A stretch of 64,000 bases of DNA from Naegleria gruberi (lineage: Eukaryota), in assembly GCA_000004985.1 (NCBI GenBank), contig GG738903.1. One strand, written 5' to 3'. Positions 19,990 to 38,051 of the stretch are shown here, piece after piece. Position numbers and translations under genes: made by a program. Under the pieces are notes generated by a model. It was not told the DNA's origin. It saw nothing but the letters and a program-made list of their open reading frames with translations, and made no database searches. Numbering within the stretch: the stretch's first letter is position 1; every line of letters starts with the position of its first letter.

Positions 19990-20886
19990 TTATTCAACAA
20001 CATCACCACCATTAACATGAATGGTTTGACCAGTTACGTATGAAGAATCCTTACTTGCCAAGTAGACATAAGCTGTGGCGCATTCAAATGGTTGACCAGC
20101 TCGACCCAAAGGAGTAGATTTACCAAATTCCTTCATCTTATCCTCAGGGAATGTACTTGGAATAAGTGGAGTCCAGATTGGACCAGGAGCAACACTATTG
20201 ACAAGAATACCTCTTGAAGCCAAATTACTTGCCAATGATCGAGTGAAGGTAGTGATTGCTCCCTTAGTGGAAGAGTAATCCAATAAGACATCCTTGCCTC
20301 TGTAGGAAGTTACACTGGTAGTATTGATGATTCTACCGGTTTGATCTGGAAGATACTTGAGTGCAGCTCTTGCCATGTAGAAATAGGAAAAGATATTTGT
20401 TTTGAAGGTATTTTCCAGTTGTTCATCACTGATATCTGTCAAATCTTGTTGAACAGTCTGAGTAGCTGCATTATTGACGAGAATGTCGAGTTTGGAGAAT
20501 TCCTTAACTGTCTTTTCAACTGCCTGATTACAAAAATCAGAAGTTCTAACATCTCCTGGAATAAGAAGACATTTTCTTCCTTCCTTTTCAATGAGTTGTT
20601 TTGTTTCTTGAGCATCCTTCTCCTCTTCCTTCAAGTAGACAATTGCCACATTGGCTCCTTCTCTGGCAAAGAGGATTGAAACTGAACGTCCAATTCCTGA
20701 ATCACCTCCAGTAATGAGAGCAACCTTGTCACGTAACTTGTTAGATCCTTTGTAATAGTCTGGATCGTCGTATTGTGGAGCAGTGAGCATGACATGCTCA
20801 AGACCTGGTGGTGATTGTTCTGGTTGCTTTCTGACTTCCTCCTTTGAGAATGAGGTTGGTTTGGATGATATTTGGCCAGTTGACAT
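19990..20886 (-). CDS. Short-chain dehydrogenase/reductase, classical SDR (bacterial YghA / general-stress-protein-39-like)
   Basis: 298 aa. Cofactor-binding motif TGGDSGIG, NNAA motif, catalytic YSSTKGA (YxxxK) and PGPIWTPL. The long N-terminal extension before the Rossmann fold is typical of the YghA/GS39 subgroup. True ATG start. Confidence 0.8.
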   Translation of the reverse strand: MSTGQISSKPTSFSKEEVRKQPEQSPPGLEHVMLTAPQYDDPDYYKGSNKLRDKVALITGGDSGIGRSVSILFAREGANVAIVYLKEEEKDAQETKQLIEKEGRKCLLIPGDVRTSDFCNQAVEKTVKEFSKLDILVNNAATQTVQQDLTDISDEQLENTFKTNIFSYFYMARAALKYLPDQTGRIINTTSVTSYRGKDVLLDYSSTKGAITTFTRSLASNLASRGILVNSVAPGPIWTPLIPSTFPEDKMKEFGKSTPLGRAGQPFECATAYVYLASKDSSYVTGQTIHVNGGDVVE

Positions 20887-22314: not shown

Positions 22315-23321
22315 TCAAAACGAAACATCGCCACTGTATCCTTGTGAATAAGGCCCTTCTCCTGCTATTGTTTCAATAATTCCATTCCTTGATACCTTTC
22401 GAATAGCATTATTGCCACTATCGGATATATACATTTCATCGTTGGAAGAAACAAAAACATGCATTGGATAATTGAGTTGGGCATTTGTTGCTGAGCTACC
22501 ATCTCCTTCAAATCCATCATTTCCATTTCCTGCTATTGTTTTAATTATTCCACTTTTAGAACCTTTCTAATTCTAAAATTATTAGAATCTGTAATATAAA
22601 TTTCTCCATTAGAGTTTACAAATGTGCTCATTGGACAATTGAGTTGAGCCTGAGTGGCCAATCCGTCATCTCCACTGAATCCTTCGTTTCCATTTCCAGC
22701 TATCGTTTCAATTATTCCACTTTTCGAAACCTTTCTAATACGATGATTTGCTGAATCCGTAATATATACCTCTTCGTTGAATACAAATACATTCATTGGA
22801 CAGTTGAGCTCGGCATTAATTGCCAAACCACCATCTCCTGAACATCCTAATTTTCCATTTCCTGCTATTGTTACAATATTTCCGTTTTGTAAAACCTTTC
22901 TAACTCGATTATTCAGATAATCCGAAATATAAACTTCTCCATTTTCTGAAACAAACACACTCGTTGGATAATTTAATTTGGCATTAATAGCTGGACCATT
23001 ATCTCCTTCAAATCCACCTTCTCCATTTCCAGCAATCGTTTCAATTATTCCATTATTCGAAACCTTTCTAATTCGATGATTATGATAATCTGCAATATAT
23101 ACTTCCTCCTTTACAACAAACACACCATTTGGATAATTTAATTTAGCATTAATTGCCAATCCACCATCACTCGAAAACCCCAATTCACCATTCCCTGCTA
23201 CTGTCATGATTTTCTGATTATTTAATTTTCTAATTCGATGATTGTTGCAATCAGCGATAAAAATTTCATCATTTGATGAAACAAAAACGCACGTGGGTCC
23301 GAAGAGTTGAATTGGAGGCAT
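22315..23321 (-). pseudogene. NHL-repeat (six-bladed beta-propeller) protein gene interrupted by a single-base frameshift near 22559; pseudogene or sequencing error
   Basis: ORF 22545..23321 holds five or six repeats of the form IETIAGNG..GFSGDGGLAINAKLNYP..VFV..NGEVYI.D..NHRIRKV. The next two repeats continue downstream in the -1 frame to a stop at 22315-22317. At the join the sequence reads AGAAAGGTTCTAAAAGTGG where every other repeat has …AAGGTT TCT AAA AGT GG (IRKVSKSG), so one T is missing. Confidence 0.55.
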
Positions 23322-23439: not shown

Positions 23440-24459
23440 CGATCGAGGAATAATAAACTAAAACTAAAGGAAAGTCTATACATTAATTTAGTTTTAATTA
23501 TTATTTACAAATTATTAGTTTTTAAATGACTATTTTCCAAGGGCCTTATTTAACAATTCCACAGTGTGTTTCCAAACTGTTTCTCTGATACTATCGCTAT
23601 GACTCTTTGTCACTTTTGCTGGCTCTCCATGTTCATCCAATAAATGGAAACCCTTCCGTGTCGATTCTGAACTTAATCCCTTGTAAATATTGTCGGCACA
23701 TTGTTCTGGAGATCTGGCAAAGTTTTGGAAGAAACGTGTGGTCCATCTCACGACAGCTGGCATTTCACGTCCCCATTGTGTGGCAATGAATCCAGGAGCT
23801 TGATGAATGAATGCAATATTTTGATTGCCTTCCTCTTTGGATAATTGATCCATGGCTAGATCATTGTAAAATCCAGCTGCATCTGCTGCATTCTTCAATG
23901 TAAAATTGTGTTTCAAATCCAAATCATCCAATTTAGTGTAAGGTGAATGAACACCAGCTGATAAAACAGTCAAGACTCTCACATCTGAATTCTTTGATGT
24001 CAATCTCAATAAATCTTGCAATTGTCTCACAAACATAACTCTTCCATAATAATGAAGTGCCAATTTAACATCAATTCCTTCCTTTGTTTCTGTTCTTCCA
24101 TTCATACTTGCAATTCCCTGTGAGAGAACACAATAATCCAATCGATCATGATTTTGTTTATATTCCTCACACACTTTTTCAATATCCTTCATGAGAGAGG
24201 CATCCACTTTGATCATTTCAAACTTTCCTTCTGGATTCAATTTTTTCATTTCTTCAATAATTTCCTTTCCTGCTTCTTCACTTCTTCCCATAATTGAAAC
24301 ATTGAATTTTTGAGAGGCAAATTTAATTGCCAATGCTCTTCCGATACCTGATGTACCTCCAACACACAGTGCTTGTTTAGTAGCCATTTTTGTTTCTGAT
24401 AAATTTGTAGAGATGATTGTTGTTTTGTTTTTTTTTGAAATTATTTGAGAGATTTGCAA
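23440..24459. repeat. Copy A of a ~1.1-kb inverted segmental duplication (SDR gene plus proximal promoter plus ~75 bp of 3' UTR)
   Basis: Reverse complement matches 36088..37110. It is identical over the 5' two-thirds of the CDS and the proximal promoter, ~95% over the 3' UTR, and visibly diverged in the 3' third of the CDS. Confidence 0.8.
23530..24387 (-). CDS. Short-chain dehydrogenase/reductase, inverted paralog A of 36176..37036
   Basis: N-terminal TGxxxGIG-type motif (VGGTSGIGRALAI), NAG/Rossmann core, Tyr/Lys region. The first ~205 codons and ~75 bp of 5' flank are nucleotide-identical to the + strand copy at 36176. The ORF-track extension to 24576 is an open frame upstream of the conserved ATG (MATKQALCVGG) and is not supported by the paralog. 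Confidence 0.75.
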   Translation of the reverse strand: MATKQALCVGGTSGIGRALAIKFASQKFNVSIMGRSEEAGKEIIEEMKKLNPEGKFEMIKVDASLMKDIEKVCEEYKQNHDRLDYCVLSQGIASMNGRTETKEGIDVKLALHYYGRVMFVRQLQDLLRLTSKNSDVRVLTVLSAGVHSPYTKLDDLDLKHNFTLKNAADAAGFYNDLAMDQLSKEEGNQNIAFIHQAPGFIATQWGREMPAVVRWTTRFFQNFARSPEQCADNIYKGLSSESTRKGFHLLDEHGEPAKVTKSHSDSIRETVWKHTVELLNKALGK

Positions 24460-25574
24460 GAAGTTTTTATTCGCTGCGTTCATCCGGGAAGACTTTGAGG
24501 CATAAGTACAAAAAAATTGATAAACACCACTGGTCCCAGCACAATTTGACCCTCCACCATTGTTAATCTGAGTCATCTCTCATCAGGAAATCTTCTCTCT
24601 TCAACCTCTGCGTATTGGATGGTACTTCTCTTGTTTGAATGTATTTTGAAGGTTCCAGTTGATAACCGAAACGATATGTTCTGAGCACTCTTTCCAGCAT
24701 AGAAGCTTTGAAAGTATGCTCAGCACATAATTGACATCATGATAAATTATTGGAAAGTGAGCAATCATGGTTGTTCAACACTGTAGTTCCTTCTTTCGTC
24801 AGCAAAATGAACAGAAAGTTATACCACTCACCATATTTATAAATAATCTATTTTTATTAATTGCTATTTTTATTATTTTTTAATTGAAATTAATTTTTAT
24901 TAACATTAATTTCAATTAAAAAAAAATGCCTAAACCAAATCATCTGATCCTGAACCATGGCAGTTAATGAAGAAAGTAAGTAGTTTATAGTAAATAATTA
25001 ACAATTTGAACAGAATTAATTGAGTTATTCAGTGAAACTCAAAAACAAGCCTAAATCCAATTTAAACTAAAACAATTGATCAACGTAAGTTTTTTTATCA
25101 TTTCAACTTTTATTTAACTAAAAACCTAGTCCGCACAATCAAACCAGCAACAGCAGTCATTAACAAATGTAAGTTTAAACCGATTTATTTATTGATGATT
25201 AACATATTTTTTTGTTAAATATCTGAAATTTTCAACTGTCACAAAGAGAAGGGTATTGAGTTGATTCATTAGTTGTAAGTCACTTTTCTTTTATTGTTAT
25301 TAATTCAAAACTAACAAGAATACATTATTGAAGAGCCCTTAACTGACCCGAAGAGGATGATCTTGAAGAAGGCTGACAGAACTCATGGTGCTTCAAATCA
25401 ACTGTTTCTTCTTGGCCTTTTCGTTAGCACTGAATCAATGATGATTAAGCTTATATTACGGCTGTGATGTGGTGCCATTTTTTTGTTGATTACTTCCAAT
25501 TTATTTAGGTTGACCACAACTATTTTCAATAAACATTTTTCTTCAACTACAAGTCAAATCAAGTCTTCTGAGAA

Positions 25575-25720
25575 CAATGTAAAGTGAGCAATCTGAGCAC
25601 ACATACTAGCACACCCCCCAGAACAGTGCTCAGAAGACTTCTCAGCACACCTCTCAGAACTGTGCCCAGATCAATCCCAGCACAGATTCCTAGCACAGTG
25701 CCTAGAAGTGTGCTGGAGAT
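25575..25720. repeat. Degenerate short tandem repeat, about 12 copies of a (C/T)TCAGCACAG(T/A)G-like unit
   Basis: Direct reading shows tgagcacacatactagcacac…gtgctcagaag…ctcagcacacc…cccagcacag…ctagcacagtgcctag…gtgtgctgg. Related TGAGCAC/GTGCTCAG words recur at 24672, 24712 and 24755. Confidence 0.5.
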
Positions 25721-25769
25721 GATTTACCTGGGAAGCCCCTGGGATGACCACTCGGAATAAATTGCTTTT

Positions 25770-25833
25770 GAAAAAGATAAATTGATGCGCACGCAGCTTG
25801 GATGTGCTGAGGAAAATTAAAACGTACGAGCAG
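25770..25833. repeat. Conserved ~64-bp noncoding block shared with 36005..36068 (inverted orientation); outer edge of the SDR duplication unit
   Basis: Reverse complement is CTGCTCGTACGTTTTAATTTTCCTCAGCACATCCAAGCTGCGTGCGCATCAATTTATCTTTTTC. Copy B is CTGCTCGTACGTTTTAATTTCCCTCAACACTTACAAACTGCGTGCGCACCAATTTTTCTTTTC. Both contain the palindromic words CGTACG and TGCGTGCGCA. Copy A lies 35-100 nt past the stop of the Cys-rich 7TM gene. Copy B lies 108-171 nt upstream of the SDR-B ATG. Confidence 0.6.
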
Positions 25834-25867
25834 AGATTTCATTTCTACTACTGTTTGGCTCATTGTT

Positions 25868-27503
25868 TCAATTTCCAATAACTTCAGAATAGTAATTAGT
25901 GCTAGATTGTTCTGGATGATGATGAAGAAGAAGTGGTGAATGATTGGAGGAAAAATTTTGTTTGGATTTGAAACAACAGGAATAGCAAGATTTCAATTCA
26001 TCCATTTCGAATTCAATGTTGAGTAAACTGGCTGTAACGAGAAGGAGAATTAAGCTTGATAATATGTCGAGGGTTTGTTTCAGAGCACTTTCATTGGAAA
26101 TGCCAAGACTTAGGGCAATAGAAATGCAGAATGCAATGTAAACTAGAGTGATAAATACAAGATATTTGGCAAACTGAAAGATTTCGAATATAATTTAGAA
26201 AAGGTTAATGAAGAAACATACCTGACTTTTCCAAATGCTCACATCTGAAACTTTCTTCAGTGCTCTTCCAATAATTATTCCAAAAATTACGAATACTATT
26301 CAAATTGTAAATAGATTGCGAACCATTTCATAACTTACCTAATAGAGCAAGTGAAAATCCATTCAAAAAGTAAACTTTGGTCAAGACACGTTCCTTTGGC
26401 AAAACAAGAAGCATAGTTATTGGAACTGCAACTCCAAAAAATGACATTAGAAATGGAATTCCATAAATCAACAAGCTGTAAATTAAATTCTTCTTATTGA
26501 AAAAAACCAAAACCTTCCTCATCCAACCTCCCAACCATGAGAAGAGTGCCAACAATAATATAATATTCAAACAATCAATAATAGTTGGTACAATTAAGGC
26601 AATACCGTCTTCTGGATCTAACACAACAGCAAACATGTAAAATATTGCCTCTATCAATAATTTGAGCATTGTGTAAGAAATGGTGAGCATGTGAAAGAAT
26701 GACTTTGTTCTGATTGAATGGACCAGTTTTGGAATAAACACAATAAATAATCCAATAAAAAACTCTCCAACAATAATAGATTCCAACAATGCACGAATGG
26801 CAATGTGAATTATTTTGTCACTATTATAAGGTAAACATTTTGGTTGGTAGTATCCATTTGATAAACAAGTGCAATAGTAGGAAAATTCATTTTTGGACAG
26901 TTCACTTGTTTTAGATTTTGAATTATTGAACAGGAATGGAATTCCATATTCGAATGTTCCACAAAATAGCATTGAAGTTGGAAAATTGGTAATGGCCTGT
27001 TGTACAATCTCATTGTTTGCTTTACATTCCCTTCTCCTCACCAAATCTCTAAACACAACACTGTTATTTCCACAATATTGACATGCATTGATCCATTCCT
27101 CAACTGAACTATCCGAATGTTTCATCAAATTGTGCATGGAATTTTCTGGTAATCCACCACATAATACATCTATACAAGTTCTATTCCACTTGACCTCCAA
27201 ATTCCTAATCTTTTTGCAAATATTTTCATTCGAAACAATATTAATTCGTTCACCATCCCACTTGACCTTCTCCGTATAAAGTACATCTTCACATGAAAAT
27301 CCATCAGGAATCCAACTTTCAATATAAATATCATCAATTGAACCCGACATTTTCGAAGAAACTCCTGAACATTGCTGAAAGAAAGGATTCAGCCACTGCA
27401 AAGAGTAAACATTACCAGAAATAAAAATTAAAATAATTAAAAGACTGATCACACTTCCCAATGATGTAGAAGAGATGTTCTTGTGAGATTCAAATCGATG
27501 CAT
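25868..27503 (-). CDS. Seven-TM receptor with N-terminal signal peptide and Cys-rich extracellular domain (Frizzled/CRD-like architecture), three exons: 27503..26338, 26294..26221, 26172..25868
   Basis: Exon 1 ORF (391 aa) has a signal peptide, ~14 Cys in the ectodomain and four TM helices. It ends inside a GTAAGT donor. A 43-nt intron (26295..26337, …TTGAATAG) gives exon 2, VFVIFGIIIGRALKKVSDVSIWKSQ (TM5 plus basic loop). A 48-nt intron (26173..26220, GTATGT…TCTTTCAG) gives exon 3 with TM6/TM7 (YLVFITLVYIAFCISIAL, ILSSLILLLVTASLL) and a Cys-rich tail to the stop at 25868. All phases are consistent. Confidence 0.6.
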
Positions 27504-27764
27504 TTTTTTCTTTTGTAAATTGGCGGGAAATTTGATCTCTAGAAATTTATTGAAATGTGAAAACTAGTCGAACACAACAAATCAATAAATAGTATGGATG
27601 TAGAAAATTCCAGAATTATCTTGCGCTGTAATATTGTTTACAAGGAGCTTTAAATTAAATCTCCTGCGGAGTAACTCCTCAAACACTTCGTCGTGATTCT
27701 TGTGTTGTTTTTTCTTATCTCTTAAAAAAATGTCAAGATCGATTCTCGGCAATGCCTTTGTGTT

Positions 27765-28478
27765 GTGTTCCTTGTTGGTAATCTTTGCATTTGTTCCATT
27801 ATTAGTGGTGGTAAATTAAAGTATTCGAAACAAAGTATCAAAGAACCTCAACGTCCACTTCTTGCTCCACACTTTACCATGAAATGGAGAATTGTTGCCT
27901 CTACCAATGACAATTCTAGTATTCCACTTGATTGGCATCCTCTTCCACCAAAGAATGTGAAATACATGCTTGGTACTGGAACTACCTATTATGATTGGTC
28001 TCAAAAAGCCATGTTAGAAGTTTATGATGATTATTGTGTTCCAATCTTTGGTCCACTCACAGACAAGATCAATCAATTCAGATGTAATTTCCTTAATGTT
28101 AATTTGACAAGTTATCTCATTAGTTTGGATCCATCTCCATTTCCAAAATGTTGTGTGTTTGGTGAACAAGTTTTCCATCCTCCAGAACCAACCTTTTTGA
28201 ACAACATGTTCTACAATTCAAGTGCTGCACTTTTTGGTAAGCCAGTGGATTGGTGGGTTTTGGATACTGATCAGAATGATCCTGCAGAACCTTTCGGATA
28301 TGGTTTCTATCCAAAAGATCAAGTTAGTGGCTATCAAACACCTGCTGCTTTTTGGTTTAGAACTGTTGATGGATTTTCTATTCAATATTTCAAAGATTTT
28401 GAAGTGAAAAAGCCAGATCCATCTGTTTGGAAATTACCTTCATATTGTGTCAATGCTCCATCGTGTGGATATTTGTAA
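27765..28478 (+). CDS. Hypothetical Cys/Trp/Pro-rich protein, possibly secreted via a short 5' exon
   Basis: 237-aa ORF; track start is a GTG codon. An upstream ATG at 27730 encodes MSRSILGNAFVLCSLL followed by a GTAATC donor. A 44-nt interval ending TTAAAG re-enters this ORF in phase (…YSKQSIKEPQRP…). The in-frame internal ATG (MKWRIV…) is the alternative start. No domain recognised. Confidence 0.35.
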   Translation: MFLVGNLCICSIISGGKLKYSKQSIKEPQRPLLAPHFTMKWRIVASTNDNSSIPLDWHPLPPKNVKYMLGTGTTYYDWSQKAMLEVYDDYCVPIFGPLTDKINQFRCNFLNVNLTSYLISLDPSPFPKCCVFGEQVFHPPEPTFLNNMFYNSSAALFGKPVDWWVLDTDQNDPAEPFGYGFYPKDQVSGYQTPAAFWFRTVDGFSIQYFKDFEVKKPDPSVWKLPSYCVNAPSCGYL

Positions 28479-29002
28479 ATTAAATTGATCAAATTAAAAA
28501 AGTTTTTCTTTATCAACTTTATTCGGAAGCCTTCTTCCTATCCAAGTTGGTGATGAAGAAGGTTTTGTATTTTTTATTTTTTTATTAAAATATTTAACGG
28601 TAATGTTGTGAGGCAACAAACACAATTGTCCATAAATAACATTAAAAACAACTTTGGAATAATAATTCACTATTTAAATCTTTTCAATACCATTCAACCA
28701 TTCTCTAACAACAAATCAAAGGTAACTTCTTTGCTGCTTTAAAATTTGCCGCCAAAACCAAGTACAATTTTCTTTAATACCGCCCACATGTTTATCCAAG
28801 TACATCACCACCAACCGATTAATGTTTTCCCTCGTAACAACACGTTCACCGTAAAGTTTCAGCAAACGCATCATAGGATTGTTATCACTAAAATTCAAAA
28901 AAAAAAATAGACGCACCCGATCCTGCCTTAATCAAGCTAGGAATTTGCAATACGATTTTGTATAATAATCAAACCCTATAATAATCATATACACTAGAGA
29001 AA

Positions 29003-29809
29003 ATGGGAAGTGCTTGTTCTTCGACCTCTAATGTTGCCGAAAAGGAAAAAGTTGAGGATGAACCAAAGACTCACAGAAGTACTAAGAAGGAATCATTCAA
29101 GAAGGAGCCACCAAAGGAACAAAAAGATCATGATGATAACAAATCAACAACCTCATCAAAATCGAGTAAATCAGGAAAACATAAACCAGCTAAGGTAGAG
29201 GAACAGGCAAAAGAAGTGCAAGCTGAAGAGGAAACTACATCGGAGAAAAAACAAGAAGAAACAAGTGAATGTGGATCGAATTCACCTCCAAAAATTGAGG
29301 AAAAGGCAGAAATTGAAGAGGAAGCTGAAGAAATTGAAAACAAGGAAGAAGAAGATAAGGAGGAAAGTGAAGAGGAAGCCGAAGAAGTAGACAATAAGGA
29401 GGAAGAAAATAAGGAAGAAGAGGCAAATGAGGAAGTAGAAGAGGAAGCTGAAGAAGTAGAAAACAAGGAGGAAGAAAATATGGAAGAAAATGAAGAAGAA
29501 TCATCTGAAAAGGTAGAAGAAGATTTGGAAAAGTTACAGGAAGATATTGAAAAGGTTGAGCAGGCTCTCGAAGAAGCTGAAGAACAACTTGATGAGCTTG
29601 AAAAGGAAGAAGAAAACCAAGAAGAAGCCAATGAAGAAGCAGAAGAACAACAGGAAGAAGAGCAGGAAGAGAAGGCAGCTCTCGATGAAGAGGAAGGAGA
29701 TGTAATGCAACCAGAAGATGACAATATTCAAGGTCTTGACAACCAAGAAGATGAACAAGCCGAAGCTGAACCAGAAGCAGAAGTTCAGGGTGGAGGTGAC
29801 GATGAATAA
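29003..29809 (+). CDS. Acidic Glu/Lys-rich protein with an N-terminal dual-acylation motif (MGSACSS: myristoyl-Gly2, palmitoyl-Cys5)
   Basis: 268 aa, more than 40% Glu. Tandem EEEAEEVENKEEEN-like units from GAA/GAG-rich DNA. Starts MGSACSSTSN at a true ATG. Confidence 0.55.
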   Translation: MGSACSSTSNVAEKEKVEDEPKTHRSTKKESFKKEPPKEQKDHDDNKSTTSSKSSKSGKHKPAKVEEQAKEVQAEEETTSEKKQEETSECGSNSPPKIEEKAEIEEEAEEIENKEEEDKEESEEEAEEVDNKEEENKEEEANEEVEEEAEEVENKEEENMEENEEESSEKVEEDLEKLQEDIEKVEQALEEAEEQLDELEKEEENQEEANEEAEEQQEEEQEEKAALDEEEGDVMQPEDDNIQGLDNQEDEQAEAEPEAEVQGGGDDE

Positions 29810-30397
29810 TCAATAGTAAAATTGTACATTAAAAACTTTAAGCAAAACAGATTACTGAATCTCAGATAGCATAGTGATGTAGTCCGTCATGAGTTGGTGA
29901 CACGCCGGTCTCCTCGGTTAATAATTAATGTGTAAATAAAGTTTTCCATCATATGAAACAGTATTAATGAAACCAAAAGTTTCACTTTGCCGAATGTGTT
30001 TTCAAAACAGTAAATCTTGTTAATTAATTTTTGTTCTTTTTTATTGTGGTTAGAATTTTTTATTGTTAAATCAAAAACTGCAGCAAGAAACAACTCCCTA
30101 AAAACTGTTACTAGTTTTAATCCCTTACGGATTTAATTAATTTCAAATAATCAGTTTGAAGCATTAATACTCAATTTTCTTAAGTAAAATACAGAGTATC
30201 TTCTCCTATAGTCAGAAATACAACTTTTGTGGTTGTGGTTCGGTAAATTCATTTATAAACAATGAAATGTTTTCCACAGTTAATATTCTAATTGAATTTT
30301 TTATTTACAATTAGTTCTTAATTTGGTAACCGACTTTACTATTACAATTGTATATTATTTTACATTATTTTAAAAAATTAATTTCACAAAAAAAAAT

Positions 30398-32510: not shown

Positions 32511-35390
32511 TTATTTAAATATTTGTACACGATGATTGTGATAATCTACTACAACGAGATGACCTTCACTTGTGATTGAAACTCCATTAGGTCCATCGAA
32601 TTGTCCATCTTCAGAACCATAACATCCAAATTGTTTGATAATTACACCCTCTCTCAAGTTCCAAATTTGAATTCTATTGTTTGCATAATCGCAAATGGCT
32701 GCAAAATTGAGACCAATATTTTTCTTCAAACAACAAATACCAGTTGGGTCACATTCAGAATTTTCTTGTTTCTTGACAGAGAATTTTCTAACAAAGGTAC
32801 CATCCAATGTAAAAACTTGGACTCTACAATTGTATCTATCAGTGATTACCAAATTACCATCAATGTCAATATCCAAACTGTTAGGTCCATAGAAATAACC
32901 TCCTTCCATTTCTGGATTAGTACCATTAGTTCCAAAAGATTTGAGGAATGAGCCATACTTGTCAAACATTTGAATTCTGTGATTATGATGGTCACATACA
33001 ATAATTTTACCAGGTATTTGAGACTTGGTCTCTGAAACAATAATACCAGTTGGATAACTGAAATGACCATACTCTGCTCCCTTTGAACCAAACTTTCCAA
33101 CCTCAGTTCCAGACTTATCAAAGGCATACACACAATGATCATCACTAGTAACAAGGATTACACCCTCCTTGGCATCAAAAGTGACACCGTATGGTTTAGG
33201 GACTGAGAACTTTCTCAAAAACTTTCCTTGCTTGTCGAATATTTGAACACGATTGTTCTCATTATCACAAATTATGATATTATCACTCGGATCTATGGCG
33301 ATATCGGTTGGGCTGGAAAATTGACCGTCTTCTGTTCCTTTTCCACCAAAACCTAAAACGAATTTACCCTCAATTTTACATTTGATTTCTTGGGTAGGTA
33401 TTACAGGAGTGTTTGGACTACTGTGAACGGATGGAGAGCTTGTACAGCTTGAGGATGATACATTACTATTAGCATTGGATGAAGGAGCATTCTTTGGACC
33501 AATGGCACCAAGTTTGTCTATTGATTCCATGAGTTCTTTCATCGAATCAAAATTTACACAAACATCCAAAGTATCAGACAAGTAACTTCTATCAATCTTT
33601 CTTAAATTTTCTTGGAATTGTTGAACAAGTACAGGAATGAGTAAACTCTTCTTGGTCTTGGATTGAATAAATTCAGCCAAGTCCATCTTGGAAAGATTTT
33701 CCATAAAACCGTCTGTCAAAAACTTAATTTGAGATAATTGTTGCATTCCACTGTTCAAAATCTTTTCACAAATTTCATCTTCACAACAAATTTTCCACTT
33801 TTCTGTCAATTCCTTTCTCTTTTGAGCCAACCTCTTTTCCAAGATATCAAAATTTTCATTGATCGACTTGACGCCATCTTCATAAGTGTGAGATATTGTT
33901 CCCTTGTCACGAGCTAATTTTTCCATTTTTTCTGAAATGTTTTGTTGCATTTGGAAAATTTGGTTTTTAAGCTCTTGTTTTTCTTTTTGATAAACTTCTT
34001 CAACTAGGTCACAGTCATGTCCCTTGTGCTTTGAAATGGCACAGATAGCACAAATCAATTCATCTCCACAAGTATGACACCAAGTGTTCAACTTTTGGTC
34101 TTTGTGGGTTTCACAACAATCAGTCAATGGTCTTAAATTATGGTGGTTAGTACTGACACTTGTTGGGGAAGTAACAGTTTTGTCCACATTTGATGATACT
34201 GATGATGAATTAGAAACAGTGCCACTAGTATTAGAAACAGTGCTACTAACAGACAAGGAAGCAGACAAAGTAGAAGCAATGGATGAAATTGCCGAACCGA
34301 TCGAATTGGCGAATCCTGATGATGTAGTCGGAGTGGAAGCTACACTTCCAGTTGGTGTTGAAGTGTTGCTACTCATTGATACTGTAGCTACTGATGGTTT
34401 GTTTGTTGTTGTTGCACTTGTATTGGTAACAGGGATAAGACCAACAGGTGTTCCGTTTGAGAATTTTCTTTTTGATTGTGGAGATCCAGGTGTAGCTTGG
34501 ACAGATGAATTATTGGCTGTGGTTGGAGAACCTTGTGGTTGTGGCTCCTTCTTTGGGATGTGAAGTCGAGGAGAGGTGTTAGATGGACTTTGGTGTTGTT
34601 GTTGCTGCTGTTGTTGTTCCATAATTTGGTGCATGGCTGATCCGAGCATAATAGGAGAGGATGAAAGAAGGGCAGCTGCACTAATATTCGAAGTTGAAGT
34701 TCCATGAACTGGAGTCATGGATGATGGAGTACTGGTAGAGTTGATTCCTTGTGATTGAACTGAAGATGGTAGCGTCTTGATATTAATTGGTGTCAAGTTG
34801 AGAATATCACTCTCCTTGCTGGATGGACTCATCATGATATTATTATTATTCATTGTTATTCCTTTTGATGGACTTCCAATAATTGCAACTCCACTATTGA
34901 AATTGTTAATTGGAGTATTATTTGATGATTGTGTTGTTATTGTTGAAGAGGATGATGAAGATGGAGAGTTTCTTGTTGGTGTTGCACTTGAAGGTGATTG
35001 ATATTGTTGAGTGGGAGAACGAACGCTTCCATTGGTTGGAGTGGTTGTTGGAGTTGAGTGATCAATCACTGTTGGTGAATTATTGGTAGGACTCTTCATA
35101 TTATGTGCTGGAGGTGGACTAGATGAAAACAGATGAAGCGCCTGAGGTCTTCTTTCATCCAAAATACATTCTTCACTCTCATCGACTTGTTTTACATTAT
35201 CAATAATAACTTCTTCTAACATTGGAGATTGTGGTTCAATATCTATTGATCTATTGTTGGAGGAGGAGGTAGAAGAACTGTGGGTATGATGTTGAAAATC
35301 ATCAGAATCATCAAAGTGAAACAATTCTTCTTCTACAATAGTTTCCGAATATCCTGTATGTTGTTGAAAATCATCAGCCTGATCAGACAT
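32511..35390 (-). CDS. B-box / coiled-coil / NHL-repeat protein (TRIM-NHL architecture without a RING finger; Brat/NCL-1-like) with a ~400-aa Ser/Thr/Asn/Gln-rich N-terminal region
   Basis: 959 aa. B-box-type zinc finger CETHKDQKLNTWCHTCGDELICAICAISKHKGHDC. ~150-aa coiled coil. Six NHL repeats (…GQFSSPTDIAIDPSDNIIICDNENNRVQIFDKQGKF…). No C3HC4 RING pattern upstream. Homopolymeric Q, N and S runs. Confidence 0.75.
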   Translation of the reverse strand: MSDQADDFQQHTGYSETIVEEELFHFDDSDDFQHHTHSSSTSSSNNRSIDIEPQSPMLEEVIIDNVKQVDESEECILDERRPQALHLFSSSPPPAHNMKSPTNNSPTVIDHSTPTTTPTNGSVRSPTQQYQSPSSATPTRNSPSSSSSSTITTQSSNNTPINNFNSGVAIIGSPSKGITMNNNNIMMSPSSKESDILNLTPINIKTLPSSVQSQGINSTSTPSSMTPVHGTSTSNISAAALLSSSPIMLGSAMHQIMEQQQQQQQHQSPSNTSPRLHIPKKEPQPQGSPTTANNSSVQATPGSPQSKRKFSNGTPVGLIPVTNTSATTTNKPSVATVSMSSNTSTPTGSVASTPTTSSGFANSIGSAISSIASTLSASLSVSSTVSNTSGTVSNSSSVSSNVDKTVTSPTSVSTNHHNLRPLTDCCETHKDQKLNTWCHTCGDELICAICAISKHKGHDCDLVEEVYQKEKQELKNQIFQMQQNISEKMEKLARDKGTISHTYEDGVKSINENFDILEKRLAQKRKELTEKWKICCEDEICEKILNSGMQQLSQIKFLTDGFMENLSKMDLAEFIQSKTKKSLLIPVLVQQFQENLRKIDRSYLSDTLDVCVNFDSMKELMESIDKLGAIGPKNAPSSNANSNVSSSSCTSSPSVHSSPNTPVIPTQEIKCKIEGKFVLGFGGKGTEDGQFSSPTDIAIDPSDNIIICDNENNRVQIFDKQGKFLRKFSVPKPYGVTFDAKEGVILVTSDDHCVYAFDKSGTEVGKFGSKGAEYGHFSYPTGIIVSETKSQIPGKIIVCDHHNHRIQMFDKYGSFLKSFGTNGTNPEMEGGYFYGPNSLDIDIDGNLVITDRYNCRVQVFTLDGTFVRKFSVKKQENSECDPTGICCLKKNIGLNFAAICDYANNRIQIWNLREGVIIKQFGCYGSEDGQFDGPNGVSITSEGHLVVVDYHNHRVQIFK

Positions 35391-36087
35391 TTCTCGAAAG
35401 TTTAATAAATTATATTTGTAAAATTATTGTTGTTGTTGTTGATTCTCTCTTATAAGAGTTTGATAAATAAATAAATATTGAATGATCACGTTTGTTCTTG
35501 ATTATACTATTGTATTATTATTATAATATTCGTTTTTTTTATCTTCGGAGATTTTAAATATGATATTATTATTGTTACTATTATTGTTGTTGTTGTAGTT
35601 GAGCAGCTATAACGGTTGCTGTTATTTGATGATGATAATATTATGTATTCTTCAAGAGTTTCAAAAAGCGAGCAAATTAATGACAACTTTAAAATCTTAC
35701 GAAAAATGGGGAACGTGTAGTGTAGAGATAATTTTTTGAAAATGGATGAGGAACTTCTATGCTTGTTATCTTATTAACAAATGTGAAATGTCAACCAAAT
35801 ATCTTGTAATTATCACTACAATACAATAATTTCCATGTTTGTGCACTAACTTTTGATGCGTTTTCATTCAAATTCATAAAATTTTGCAATGGACAAGTGT
35901 TCGATTCCTTAACTTGCACCAGCTCATTTTCTTTAAGAAAGGCACTAGGTACAGAACCAAGGTCTATTATTTTCTAATGTTTCTTATTGACATCCTAAAA
36001 CAATCCTGCTCGTACGTTTTAATTTCCCTCAACACTTACAAACTGCGTGCGCACCAATTTTTCTTTTCGGTAATTTAAAAACTTTTT

Positions 36088-37110
36088 CAAATCTCTCAAA
36101 TAATTTCAAAAAAAAACAAAACAAACAACATCTCTCTCATAGCTAATCATCTCTACAAATTTATCAAGAAACAAAATGGCTACTAAACAAGCACTGTGTG
36201 TTGGAGGTACATCAGGTATCGGAAGAGCATTGGCAATTAAATTTGCCTCTCAAAAATTCAATGTTTCAATCATGGGAAGAAGTGAAGAAGCAGGAAAGGA
36301 AATTATTGAAGAAATGAAAAAATTGAATCCAGAAGGAAAGTTTGAAATGATTAAAGTGGATGCCTCTCTCATGAAGGATATTGAAAAAGTGTGTGAGGAA
36401 TATAAACAAAATCATGATCGATTGGATTATTGTGTTCTTTCACAGGGAATTGCAAGTATGAATGGAAGAACAGAAACAAAGGAAGGAATTGATGTAAAAT
36501 TGGCACTTCATTATTATGGAAGAGTTATGTTTGTGAGACAATTGCAAGATTTATTGAGATTGACATCAAAAAATTCAGATGTGAGAGTCTTGACAGTTTT
36601 ATCAGCTGGTGTTCATTCACCTTACACCAAATTGGATGATTTGGATTTGAAACATAACTTTACATTGAAGAATGCAGCAGATGCAGCTGGATTTTACAAT
36701 GATCTCGCCATGGATCAATTATCCAAAGAGGAAGGCAATCAAAATATTGCATTCATTCATCAAGCTCCTGGAATTGTGGCTACTCAATGGGGTCGTGATT
36801 TTCCAACTGTTTTGAGATGGGCATGTGAAGTTGTCAAGGTAGTGGCTGCTAAATCTCCTGAGAAATATGCTGAATATACTTATAATGCATTGAGTTCAGA
36901 TTCTACACGAAAGGGCTTCCATTTATTGAATCAATACGGAGAGCCAGCAAGTGTGACAAAGAGTCATACTGATAATATCAGAGAAACAGTTTGGAAACAC
37001 ACTGTAGAATTGTTAAATAAGGCCCTTGGAAAATAATCATTTAAAAACTAATAATTTGTAAATAATAAACTAAAACTAAATTAATTTCCTAATTTCATTT
37101 GGATAGCTCT
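36088..37110. repeat. Copy B of the ~1.1-kb inverted segmental duplication carrying the SDR gene
   Basis: See copy A (23440..24459). Shared proximal promoter …AAATCTCTCAAATAATTTCAAAAAAAAACAAAACAA…ATCATCTCTACAAATTTATCA(A)GAAACAAAATG. Shared 3' UTR TTAAATAAGGCCCTTGGAAAATA(G/A)TCATTTAAAAACTAATAATTTGTAAATAATAA…. Confidence 0.8.
36176..37036 (+). CDS. Short-chain dehydrogenase/reductase, inverted paralog B of 23530..24387
   Basis: 286 aa. Residues 1-205 are identical to copy A (MATKQALCVGGTSGIGRALAIKFASQKF…FIHQAPG). The C-terminal ~80 residues are ~70% identical (IVATQWGRDFPTVLRWACEVVKVV… versus FIATQWGREMPAVVRWTTRFFQNF…). Confidence 0.75.
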   Translation: MATKQALCVGGTSGIGRALAIKFASQKFNVSIMGRSEEAGKEIIEEMKKLNPEGKFEMIKVDASLMKDIEKVCEEYKQNHDRLDYCVLSQGIASMNGRTETKEGIDVKLALHYYGRVMFVRQLQDLLRLTSKNSDVRVLTVLSAGVHSPYTKLDDLDLKHNFTLKNAADAAGFYNDLAMDQLSKEEGNQNIAFIHQAPGIVATQWGRDFPTVLRWACEVVKVVAAKSPEKYAEYTYNALSSDSTRKGFHLLNQYGEPASVTKSHTDNIRETVWKHTVELLNKALGK

Positions 37111-37169
37111 TCAAATTTTTATAGTATTAATGTCACAAAGCAAAACTTATTTATTGAACTTCAGATCAA

Positions 37170-38051
37170 TTAAAGAGAGTAAACTTCGTAATCTAGAGTG
37201 GTAAATTCACGAGTTGATCCAGTCAAGTAATCCTTTCCCAAATTTGAATAAGTGAATGGATTAGTGAAACTTTTCTTGGTACCTCTAGCAATGAAAATAT
37301 CATGTCCACCTCCAAAAGTTGGATGATCAACAGATCTATGATAAACTGAATAATTGACATATGCAGAATGTGGTCCATCTTGAATCAATTTCTTGAATCT
37401 TTCATCTCTCTTTGGTCCAATTAAACTAAATAAGAAAGCTTTGGAATCTGGGAAGAAATCCAACATTGCTGAACTCCAACTCACTGAAGTATAACCTCCA
37501 AAGATAGCTCCTGAGCTTGCCTTAATAATTGTTACAGTTGGTCCTTGATTATCACATTTTGAATGGAAAGATCTGGCTCTGAATCCATCCTTAGATGCAT
37601 TATAAAGTAATTTCATTGGTCTAGTTTTAACATCTTTCAACAATTCATCAATAAATCTCTTAGATTGATTTGCAGTTAAAAAAGTTGATTTTGACAAATC
37701 TCCAATTAATCCCAAATCCACCTTTGATTCCGTTTTCCTCTTACTTGTTCTCTTTTTAAGAATTTTCAGTTTAACGCTCTTTGATTTTGTTGGGTTGCCA
37801 TCCTTATTAGCATTCAAGGTAACCCGAGGAGCATTTCTATTCCTAACAACAACTGCTTGTTTACGCATCACCTTCTTACCATGTTGGTTTTGTTGTTGTT
37901 TTGATCGTTTTATTAATCTTGCTGTTGCCTTAATAGAAGCCTTGGTAGTTCCCTTAGCTTTCTTCCCCTCAACAGCAGAAACAACAACAACACTCAACAC
38001 GACCAACAGCAACAACAATAACAAGAAGAAAACGCCTCTCCTCATCATCAT
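37170..38051 (-). CDS. TLDc-domain protein with signal peptide and a Lys-rich basic region
   Basis: Signal-like MMMRRGVFFLLLLLLLVVLSVVVVSAVEG. C-terminal LLYNASKDGFRARSFHSKCDNQGPTVTIIKASSGAIFGGYTSVSW… is the TLDc pattern (LLYR.S.DGF…FH..CD..GPT.T.I……FGGYT…W). Confidence 0.6.
   Translation of the reverse strand: MMMRRGVFFLLLLLLLVVLSVVVVSAVEGKKAKGTTKASIKATARLIKRSKQQQNQHGKKVMRKQAVVVRNRNAPRVTLNANKDGNPTKSKSVKLKILKKRTSKRKTESKVDLGLIGDLSKSTFLTANQSKRFIDELLKDVKTRPMKLLYNASKDGFRARSFHSKCDNQGPTVTIIKASSGAIFGGYTSVSWSSAMLDFFPDSKAFLFSLIGPKRDERFKKLIQDGPHSAYVNYSVYHRSVDHPTFGGGHDIFIARGTKKSFTNPFTYSNLGKDYLTGSTREFTTLDYEVYSL

Follow-up and report, generated by a model that had tools for sequence, protein, structure and literature searches.

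The stretch of Naegleria gruberi NEG-M DNA analysed here (64 kb, 33.9% G+C overall, hereafter the window) holds two near-identical short-chain dehydrogenase (SDR) genes in inverted orientation, SDR-A and SDR-B, and the upstream region of SDR-A is interrupted by an insert of 1,288 bp (24470-25757, 34.2% G+C) that lies 82 nt upstream of the SDR-A ATG and, among copy A, copy B and a related metagenome contig (L001), occurs in the NEG-M copy A only. As read from the alignments, the event is an insertion in the lineage of NEG-M copy A and not a deletion in B, and it postdates both the A/B duplication and the split, of a few percent divergence, from the organism of L001. The explanation that we prefer, with a confidence just above even, is that the insert is a recent, lineage-specific, non-autonomous cut-and-paste DNA transposon targeting TA, because it combines a TA duplication, inverted repeats anchored at its ends, a subterminal array and a lack of coding capacity with absence from a close relative. 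As a transposon insertion this is a fairly ordinary event, and no major question is changed by it; what is unusual is only the intron-like cluster in its interior and a motif that it shares with the host promoter.

Insert boundaries and the unoccupied sites

On searching 24440-25800 against the window by blastn, A 24440-24469 was matched to B 36104-36076 and A 25772-25800 to B 36067-36039, and at the position of the insert ~1.3 kb in A faces 8 poorly aligned bases in B. A closer comparison came from a protein search with SDR-A, in which a 98% identical protein (P0007) from an ENA metagenome assembly was found to be encoded on a 4,366-bp contig, L001, which is a Naegleria metagenome contig ~95-97% identical to the window (our literature search found no paper on the source metagenome, PRJEB11402). 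By blastn, L001 1-2788 aligns to window 28499-25758 at 96.7% and L001 2787-3795 aligns to window 24469-23482 at 94.6%, that is, the contig passes directly from the distal to the proximal flank of copy A. It is these breakpoints, 24469 and 25758, together with the 2-bp overlap of the two alignments, that set the insert boundaries at 24470-25757. The original prediction, made from the letters of the window alone, had proposed that a ~1.3-kb insertion at 24460-25769 splits the promoter of SDR-A. The insertion is indeed there, being absent both from B and from the A-type site in L001, whereas its exact span, as given by the L001 empty site, is the 1,288 bp stated above.

In the four-way alignment the L001 row reads GCAATT, TA and then AGAACTTTTTGCAAATC (AGAAC after the TA), and the B row reads GTAATT, TA and then AAAACTTTTTCAAATC. 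In the A row, GCAATT and TA are followed by the insert (from TTCCGAG to GCAGCGAA), a second TA and AAAACTTCTTGCAAATC (AAAAC after this TA). The two copies of the duplicated TA therefore lie at 24468-24469 on the left and at 25758-25759 on the right, and a single TA stands at each of the empty sites, which blastn and the alignment place at 36076-36077 (+ strand) upstream of SDR-B and at 2787-2788 in L001. Since the bases bordering the L001 junction are A-specific on both sides (GCAATTTA and TTGCAAATC, where B has GTAATTTA and TTCAAATC), L001 is a true unoccupied A-type site, orthologous or allelic, and not a B promoter copied in. No excision footprint was seen in the alignment, as there are no extra bases at either of the empty sites in B and L001. 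The direction that had been assumed for the event at the outset, with a deletion in B as the alternative, is borne out by this comparison, in which the unoccupied A-type site has one TA and the occupied site two.

Termini, arms and the intron-like interior

The left terminal inverted repeat, TTCGCTGCGTTCATCC (24470-24485, + strand), agrees at 11 of 16 positions with the reverse complement of the right end, TTCCGAGTGGTCATCC (25742-25757, − strand). This match is anchored at the exact ends of the insert and has P ~9e-4; among 1,288-bp segments drawn at random from the window, just 0.09% reach such a match when anchored in this way. Both ends follow a degenerate pattern, TTC NNN G Y G K TCATCC (the tips are TTC, and TCATCC has an equal offset in the two), to which the right repeat shows 0 mismatches. 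Weak inverted similarity of the ends had also been described earlier; it is real in the form of this 11/16 match, though part of the alignment then given for it consists of flank and duplicated TA. The terminal pattern has 7 matches in the window vs 0.9 expected, and the five extra ones were considered as related elements and rejected since neither a TA nor a partner accompanies them and they have the look of TTCATCC-rich coding DNA. Two matches of the terminal 20-mer in JGI metagenomes were likewise put down to chance, one being in a 63% G+C contig and the other apparently inside a protein-coding open reading frame (ORF).

Between the termini the composition changes stepwise. The left arm (24470-24830, 39% G+C) has an imperfect hairpin at 24675-24729 with 20-nt arms that are 85% complementary and carry GAGCAC/GCTCAGCACA motifs (DNA fold −14 kcal/mol, z = −4.7). 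It is followed by an A+T-rich stretch (24831-24926, 8% G+C), in which a pure A+T palindrome at 24872-24927 (26-nt arms, 92%; fold z = −5.8) ends directly upstream of the first candidate exon. After the GTAAGT region come ~240 bp of unique sequence and then the right arm (25561-25757, 50% G+C), which consists mostly of a 12-nt array that reaches almost to the terminus. Tandem Repeats Finder gives this subterminal array a period of 12 and we count ~11 units at 25593-25724 on the + strand (CYYAGMACANNN; e.g. CTCAGCACACCT, CTCAGAACTGTG, CCTAGCACAGTG). The insert makes up 2% of the window and holds 8 of its 28 AGCACA copies, and no motif cluster comparable to the array was found elsewhere in the 64-kb window. 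It may be noted that the host flank directly to the right of the insert (25803-25916) also has the array motif (CTCAGCACA, CTAGCAC, CCAGAACA), in three copies that lie on the opposite strand, and that one of these copies falls inside the conserved distal block of the SDR upstream region, as CCTCAGCACATCC in A and L001 and as CCTCAACACTTAC in B. The motif may be common to the array and the flank by coincidence, as a factor-binding site that both share, or because of a target preference.

The central part of the insert is marked by four GTAAGT hexamers on the + strand, at 24976, 25085, 25169 and 25275. Their spacing of 109, 84 and 106 nt agrees with the ~85-110 nt originally reported, and the stretch described as AT-rich (24927-25320) does have 26.9% G+C vs 33.9% for the window. 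Counting both strands, the hexamer occurs 17 times in the whole window vs 20.4 expected, yet a same-strand cluster of four within 350 nt was obtained in 0 of 200 first-order Markov simulations (the maximum was 3, reached in 9 of the 200). A (C/A)AG had been described 38-78 nt after each hexamer; an AG is found at 38, 45, 78 and 44 nt respectively, of which the second is preceded by T and not by C or A. The candidate introns so delimited, all on the + strand, are 24976-25013 (GTAAGT...AACAG, 38 nt, 21% G+C), 25085-25129 (GTAAGT...CCTAG, 45 nt, 20% G+C), 25169-25246 (GTAAGT...CAAAG, 78 nt, 22% G+C) and 25275-25318 (GTAAGT...ACTAACAAG, 44 nt, 23% G+C), and at 20-23% G+C they are poorer than the candidate exons at 25-41%.

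For comparison, a simple ORF-joining heuristic was used to list plausible spliceosomal introns of the window. It returned ~10-15 in 64 kb (~1 per 5 kb), mostly ~40-110 nt long and starting with GTAAGT, GTATGT or GTGAGT. Four GTAAGT units in ~350 nt are therefore far above the intron density of this genome. The lengths of the candidates and their TAG/CAG/AAG ends are like those of real introns such as the ones at 26338 (− strand) and 38583 (+ strand). These two are also the clearest real GTAAGT introns and have G at position −1, which is found in 0 of the 4 candidate donors. A tandem-repeat origin of the four hexamers was rejected, because their flanks, once the hexamer is masked, resemble one another no better than shuffled sequence does (the lone significant pair being an artefact of physically overlapping test windows) and Tandem Repeats Finder detected no ~100-nt repeat in the region. 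The four candidate introns are most likely remnants or present parts of a spliced transcript without protein-coding capacity.

That no protein is encoded was examined in several ways. All donor/acceptor combinations were enumerated and the longest ORF so obtained, 36 aa, is an unspliced one, in keeping with the earlier failure to assemble a spliced frame across these junctions. Pfam searches of the six frames of the insert gave no match even at E = 10, hence no transposase remnant. The 31 stop-free stretches of at least 24 aa, searched in concatenated form, have no homologue at E <= 1 among 5.8 billion proteins, a search of low power given that gene callers made no calls in the 729-bp intergenic region of L001. 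With Rfam at a permissive E-value only chance-level matches were found in 24300-25950, that to SNORD108 (19 bits, E = 1.9) being the best for candidate intron 3. Certain kinds of RNA gene were also considered and set aside: a small nucleolar RNA (snoRNA) host gene, as the best C/D-box matches have 19 bits and E = 0.9-1.9 and introns of 38-78 nt are too short (candidate intron 3 does have TGATGA and CTGA, only ~25 nt apart, which fits no snoRNA model); a spliced-leader RNA gene array, as the four donors are preceded by unrelated sequences; and a tRNA-derived short interspersed nuclear element, as ARAGORN detected no tRNA-like head in 24300-25900. Out of the three alternatives entertained at first for this region, a degraded transposon is thus the best supported and a decayed gene loses ground for want of a homologue in any frame. 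A multi-intron noncoding transcript is possible as the cargo of the element.

Element class and competing explanations

A TA target duplication points to the Tc1/mariner superfamily. TA is found on both sides of the insert in A and singly in L001 and B, and the insert resembles the non-autonomous (Stowaway-like) members of this superfamily also in the lack of a transposase gene, the A+T-rich interior, the location near a gene and, marginally, its terminal inverted repeats. It differs from them in its length (1,288 bp vs under ~800 bp), in repeats that are only 69% identical over 16 nt and in the 12-nt subterminal array, which is atypical of the superfamily. With the TA duplication present and the terminal repeats marginal, an assignment to Tc1/mariner cannot be claimed. 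Among En/Spm (CACTA) elements a cluster of 12-nt motif copies beside the terminus is a point of likeness, but the termini of the insert are not CAC(TA), TA is not a 3-bp duplication and the array is strong at one end only. Pack-MULE-type carriers of gene fragments, known from plants, are similar in having transposon ends around an interior that resembles a host transcription unit, with its introns unspliced and no intact frame; they differ in that the insert has a duplication of 2 bp vs the 9-11 bp of Mutator-like elements, no long terminal repeats and no parent gene identified. There is a further likeness to transposons whose insertion in a promoter alters the expression of one paralogue, as here just one of two near-identical genes has the insert placed between its start codon and a conserved upstream block.

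Other classes were rejected. The length of 1,288 bp vs about 50-800 bp does not suit a miniature inverted-repeat transposable element. A Helitron (5′-TC...CTRR-3′, inserted between A and T without duplication and with a 3′ hairpin) does not fit, as the insert has the ends TTCGCT...CTCGGAA and no register places it between a host A and T. The 2-bp duplication and the lack of TTAA at the junctions do not agree with hAT, Mutator and piggyBac elements (8 bp, 9-11 bp and TTAA respectively). An introner-type element is contradicted by the intergenic location, by the size of 1.3 kb vs 40-110-nt introns and by donor sites that are internal and not terminal. The signatures of the PHIS superfamily are a 3-bp TWA duplication (PIF/Harbinger), AT in A|AT|T (ISL2EU) and AAATTT without duplication (Spy) (PMC4482050). 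The insert has none of these, for its duplication is TA, a 3-bp reading would give TTA on one side vs TAA on the other, and the target, TTCTTAAATTGC, is not cut at AAA|TTT.

If the insert is such a transposon, the transposase that moved it would have acted in trans from another genomic locus and, to judge from the TA target, would probably have been of the Tc1/mariner type. The interior of the insert would then be non-coding cargo, comprising the A+T-only palindrome followed by five short exon-like pieces parted by four short introns of Naegleria type, and this cargo could be what is left of a gene that the element had at some time carried or captured; alternatively it could be a non-coding, spliced transcript directed away from SDR-A. 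Several observations weigh against a transposon origin. The terminal repeat, with 69% identity over 16 nt, is a weak one, the 40-nt ends give no significant local alignment when they are not anchored, and the termini are unlike what we take to be the usual Tc1/mariner ends. The 12-nt repeat motif points the same way in the left and right arms and is not inverted between them, and miniature elements are typically shorter than the 1,288 bp of the insert. By our estimate a 2-bp duplication would be expected by chance in ~1/5 of random insertions. No second copy was found by blastn in the 64-kb window, the rest of the N. gruberi genome being outside this search, and none was found among called proteins, viral contigs or JGI metagenomes (the last with the terminal 20-mer), all of them searches of low power. 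Nor did the literature yield a description of this 1,288-bp element.

The main rival is a one-off fragment capture, in which break repair upstream of SDR-A would have inserted ~1.3 kb copied from elsewhere, e.g. the A+T-rich promoter and 5′ part of a gene that is non-coding or rich in introns, the TA and the terminal similarity being coincidental. The missing second copy, the weak terminal repeat with its non-significant local end alignment and the direct orientation of the motif in both arms all suit such a capture, as does an interior more like a small transcription unit than transposon sequence. Yet an 11/16 match at the exact ends (P ~9e-4) would then have to coincide with a TA duplication, and the position of the 12-nt array, right beside one terminus, is one known from many DNA transposons, so that we consider capture rather unlikely. 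Far less can be said for the possibility that the 1.3 kb is ancestral and that both B and the L001 lineage lost it, by independent deletions or through gene conversion. The mosaic of A-like and B-like segments in L001 does show that exchange between the copies occurs, but B and L001 would each have had to lose the identical 1,290 bp with just one TA remaining and without a footprint, a 2-bp repeat presumably cannot drive such recurrent precise deletion, and the A-specific bases flanking the L001 junction mean that a conversion tract from B missed the site. We regard this scenario as extremely improbable.

The nature of the cargo is a separate matter, to be weighed alongside the transposon reading of the insert. 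It is tentatively conceivable, if doubtful, that the cargo is a functional gene for a spliced long non-coding RNA, starting at ~24927 on the + strand, with four introns lost and an end near the AATAAA at ~25529. This would account for a non-random set of four perfect GTAAGT donors that lie in 300 nt of a single strand and are not mutual copies, for an AG 38-78 nt after each of them, for the lower G+C of the introns (20-23%) vs the exons (25-41%), for lengths and ends like those of real introns in the window and for the A+T-only palindrome directly upstream. Against it, Rfam gave nothing and there is no homologue for a conservation test, 0 of 4 donors have the G at −1 seen in the two clearest real GTAAGT introns, and the absence of the sequence from the close relative implies a function that is very young or dispensable. 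That the GTAAGT cluster is instead a by-product of A+T-rich or repetitive sequence and unrelated to splicing appears improbable. The region does have 27% G+C, no ORF assembles across it and there are weak resemblances among the stretches upstream of the first three sites. However, GTAAGT is not enriched in the window (17 vs 20) and four nevertheless fall within 300 nt of one strand (0 of 200 simulations), the masked flanks behave like shuffled sequence and Tandem Repeats Finder reports no ~100-nt repeat. Less probable again, and in our view very unlikely, is a mobile element whose genuine spliced, intron-dense non-coding cargo and CTCAGCACA-type motif array, with its motif also present in the host's conserved block, spread a regulatory and splicing module, rewiring SDR-A or giving it a new start.

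Should the transposon explanation be true, the exact boundaries and the empty site would offer a handle on a recently active DNA transposon family of N. gruberi. The locus would also be a natural experiment on Naegleria promoters, near-identical paralogues differing by 1.3 kb between a conserved block and the gene. If it is spliced, the intron-like cluster would represent a non-coding transcript of a kind unusual for a lineage with few introns. Little has been described of the transposons of Naegleria, whose genomes are dense in genes and poor in repeats. These genomes have 2.5-5.1% repeats, with DNA transposons present but sparse at under ~1.3%, and CMC-EnSpm and PiggyBac have been named for N. 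lovaniensis (PMC6125883). Pfam scans of the ten ORFs neighbouring the insert revealed no transposase.

The SDR-A upstream region and its setting

Of its original proximal upstream sequence SDR-A keeps 82 nt (24388-24469, − strand), without a 19-nt stretch that is present in B and L001. This missing stretch (ACAACATCTCTCTCATAGCT; compare 24398-24420 with 36125-36143) is a second, A-specific promoter lesion. The distal conserved block (25772-25835, − strand) is kept in A, B and L001 and has the core AAGCTGCGTGCGCA (25786-25799, given as the + strand complement). The insertion would have shifted this block from the ~110-130 nt at which it otherwise lies to the ~1.4 kb at which it is now found upstream of the SDR-A ATG. 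From this displacement we expect that SDR-A expression probably differs from that of SDR-B. The block core AAGCTGC(A)GGTGCGCA recurs, as AAGCTGCAGGTGCGCA, in a Naegleria-like contig (L004), where it precedes the ATG of an SDR of 66% identity by ~110 nt, and this one distant comparison suggests that the core is a real cis-element. In the same contig a tRNA-like sequence (GGGCGATTAGCTCAGCGGTAGAGCAC...) is seen at 360-440, upstream of the 66%-identical SDR, and the first ~170 nt are G+C-rich and foreign-looking.

Within the insert, an ATG at 24576 opens a stop-free run of 63 codons on the − strand in frame with the SDR-A ATG. The extended ORF (23530-24576, 348 aa) crosses the left terminus and the remaining upstream sequence, and we estimate the chance of such a frame staying open at ~1%. 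The annotated SDR-A protein begins at the downstream ATG; an N-terminally extended SDR-A could arise if transcripts began within the insert.

The SDR-A coding sequence occupies 23530-24387 on the − strand and is an exact protein match to EFC39023, a FabG domain-containing protein, with its reading frame intact. SDR-B (EFC38962) is encoded at 36176-37036 on the + strand. Exact protein matches assign the window to N. gruberi NEG-M, to a scaffold of 304,373 bp. A second NEG-M contig, of 12,219 bp, carries an allele of SDR-A (EFC35852) together with EFC35853; for the SDR-A allele in NEG-M (P0003) the identity is 99%. The 5′ ~600 bp of the two copies (23791-24390 vs 36173-36772) are 98% identical and the last third (23500-23790 vs 36773-37066) just 62-89%, a difference that points to gene conversion limited to the 5′ part or to replacement of the 3′ part. 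NHL-repeat genes lie near both copies (22545-23321 and 32511-35390), the ORF adjoining SDR-A being EFC39022. A third short-chain dehydrogenase ORF (19990-20886, − strand; adh_short, E = 5e-50) was noticed 2.6 kb past the NHL gene by SDR-A.

Downstream of the empty site L001 is a mosaic of A-like and B-like segments, and its protein is A-like to about residue 250 and B-like thereafter. On comparing the whole contig (1-4366) with window 23482-28499 and 36002-37661, we observed that its single SDR joins the upstream flank of A, with a multi-pass membrane protein gene at 26.0-27.5 kb, to the downstream flank of B, with a TLDc-domain gene at 37170-38051. The 11.8-kb segment between the inverted SDR copies may have been flipped in the L001 Naegleria by recombination of A with B. 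Alternatively, L001 may keep the ancestral single-copy layout, NEG-M having undergone an inversion with duplicated ends. The contig is unlikely to be a chimera of the metagenome assembly, since A and B share only 62-88% identity at the point of the switch. Finally, the stretch 29001-30000 has a strongly skewed composition (GC skew +0.32, AT skew +0.45) and overlaps an ORF at 29003-29809 that has no Pfam match.

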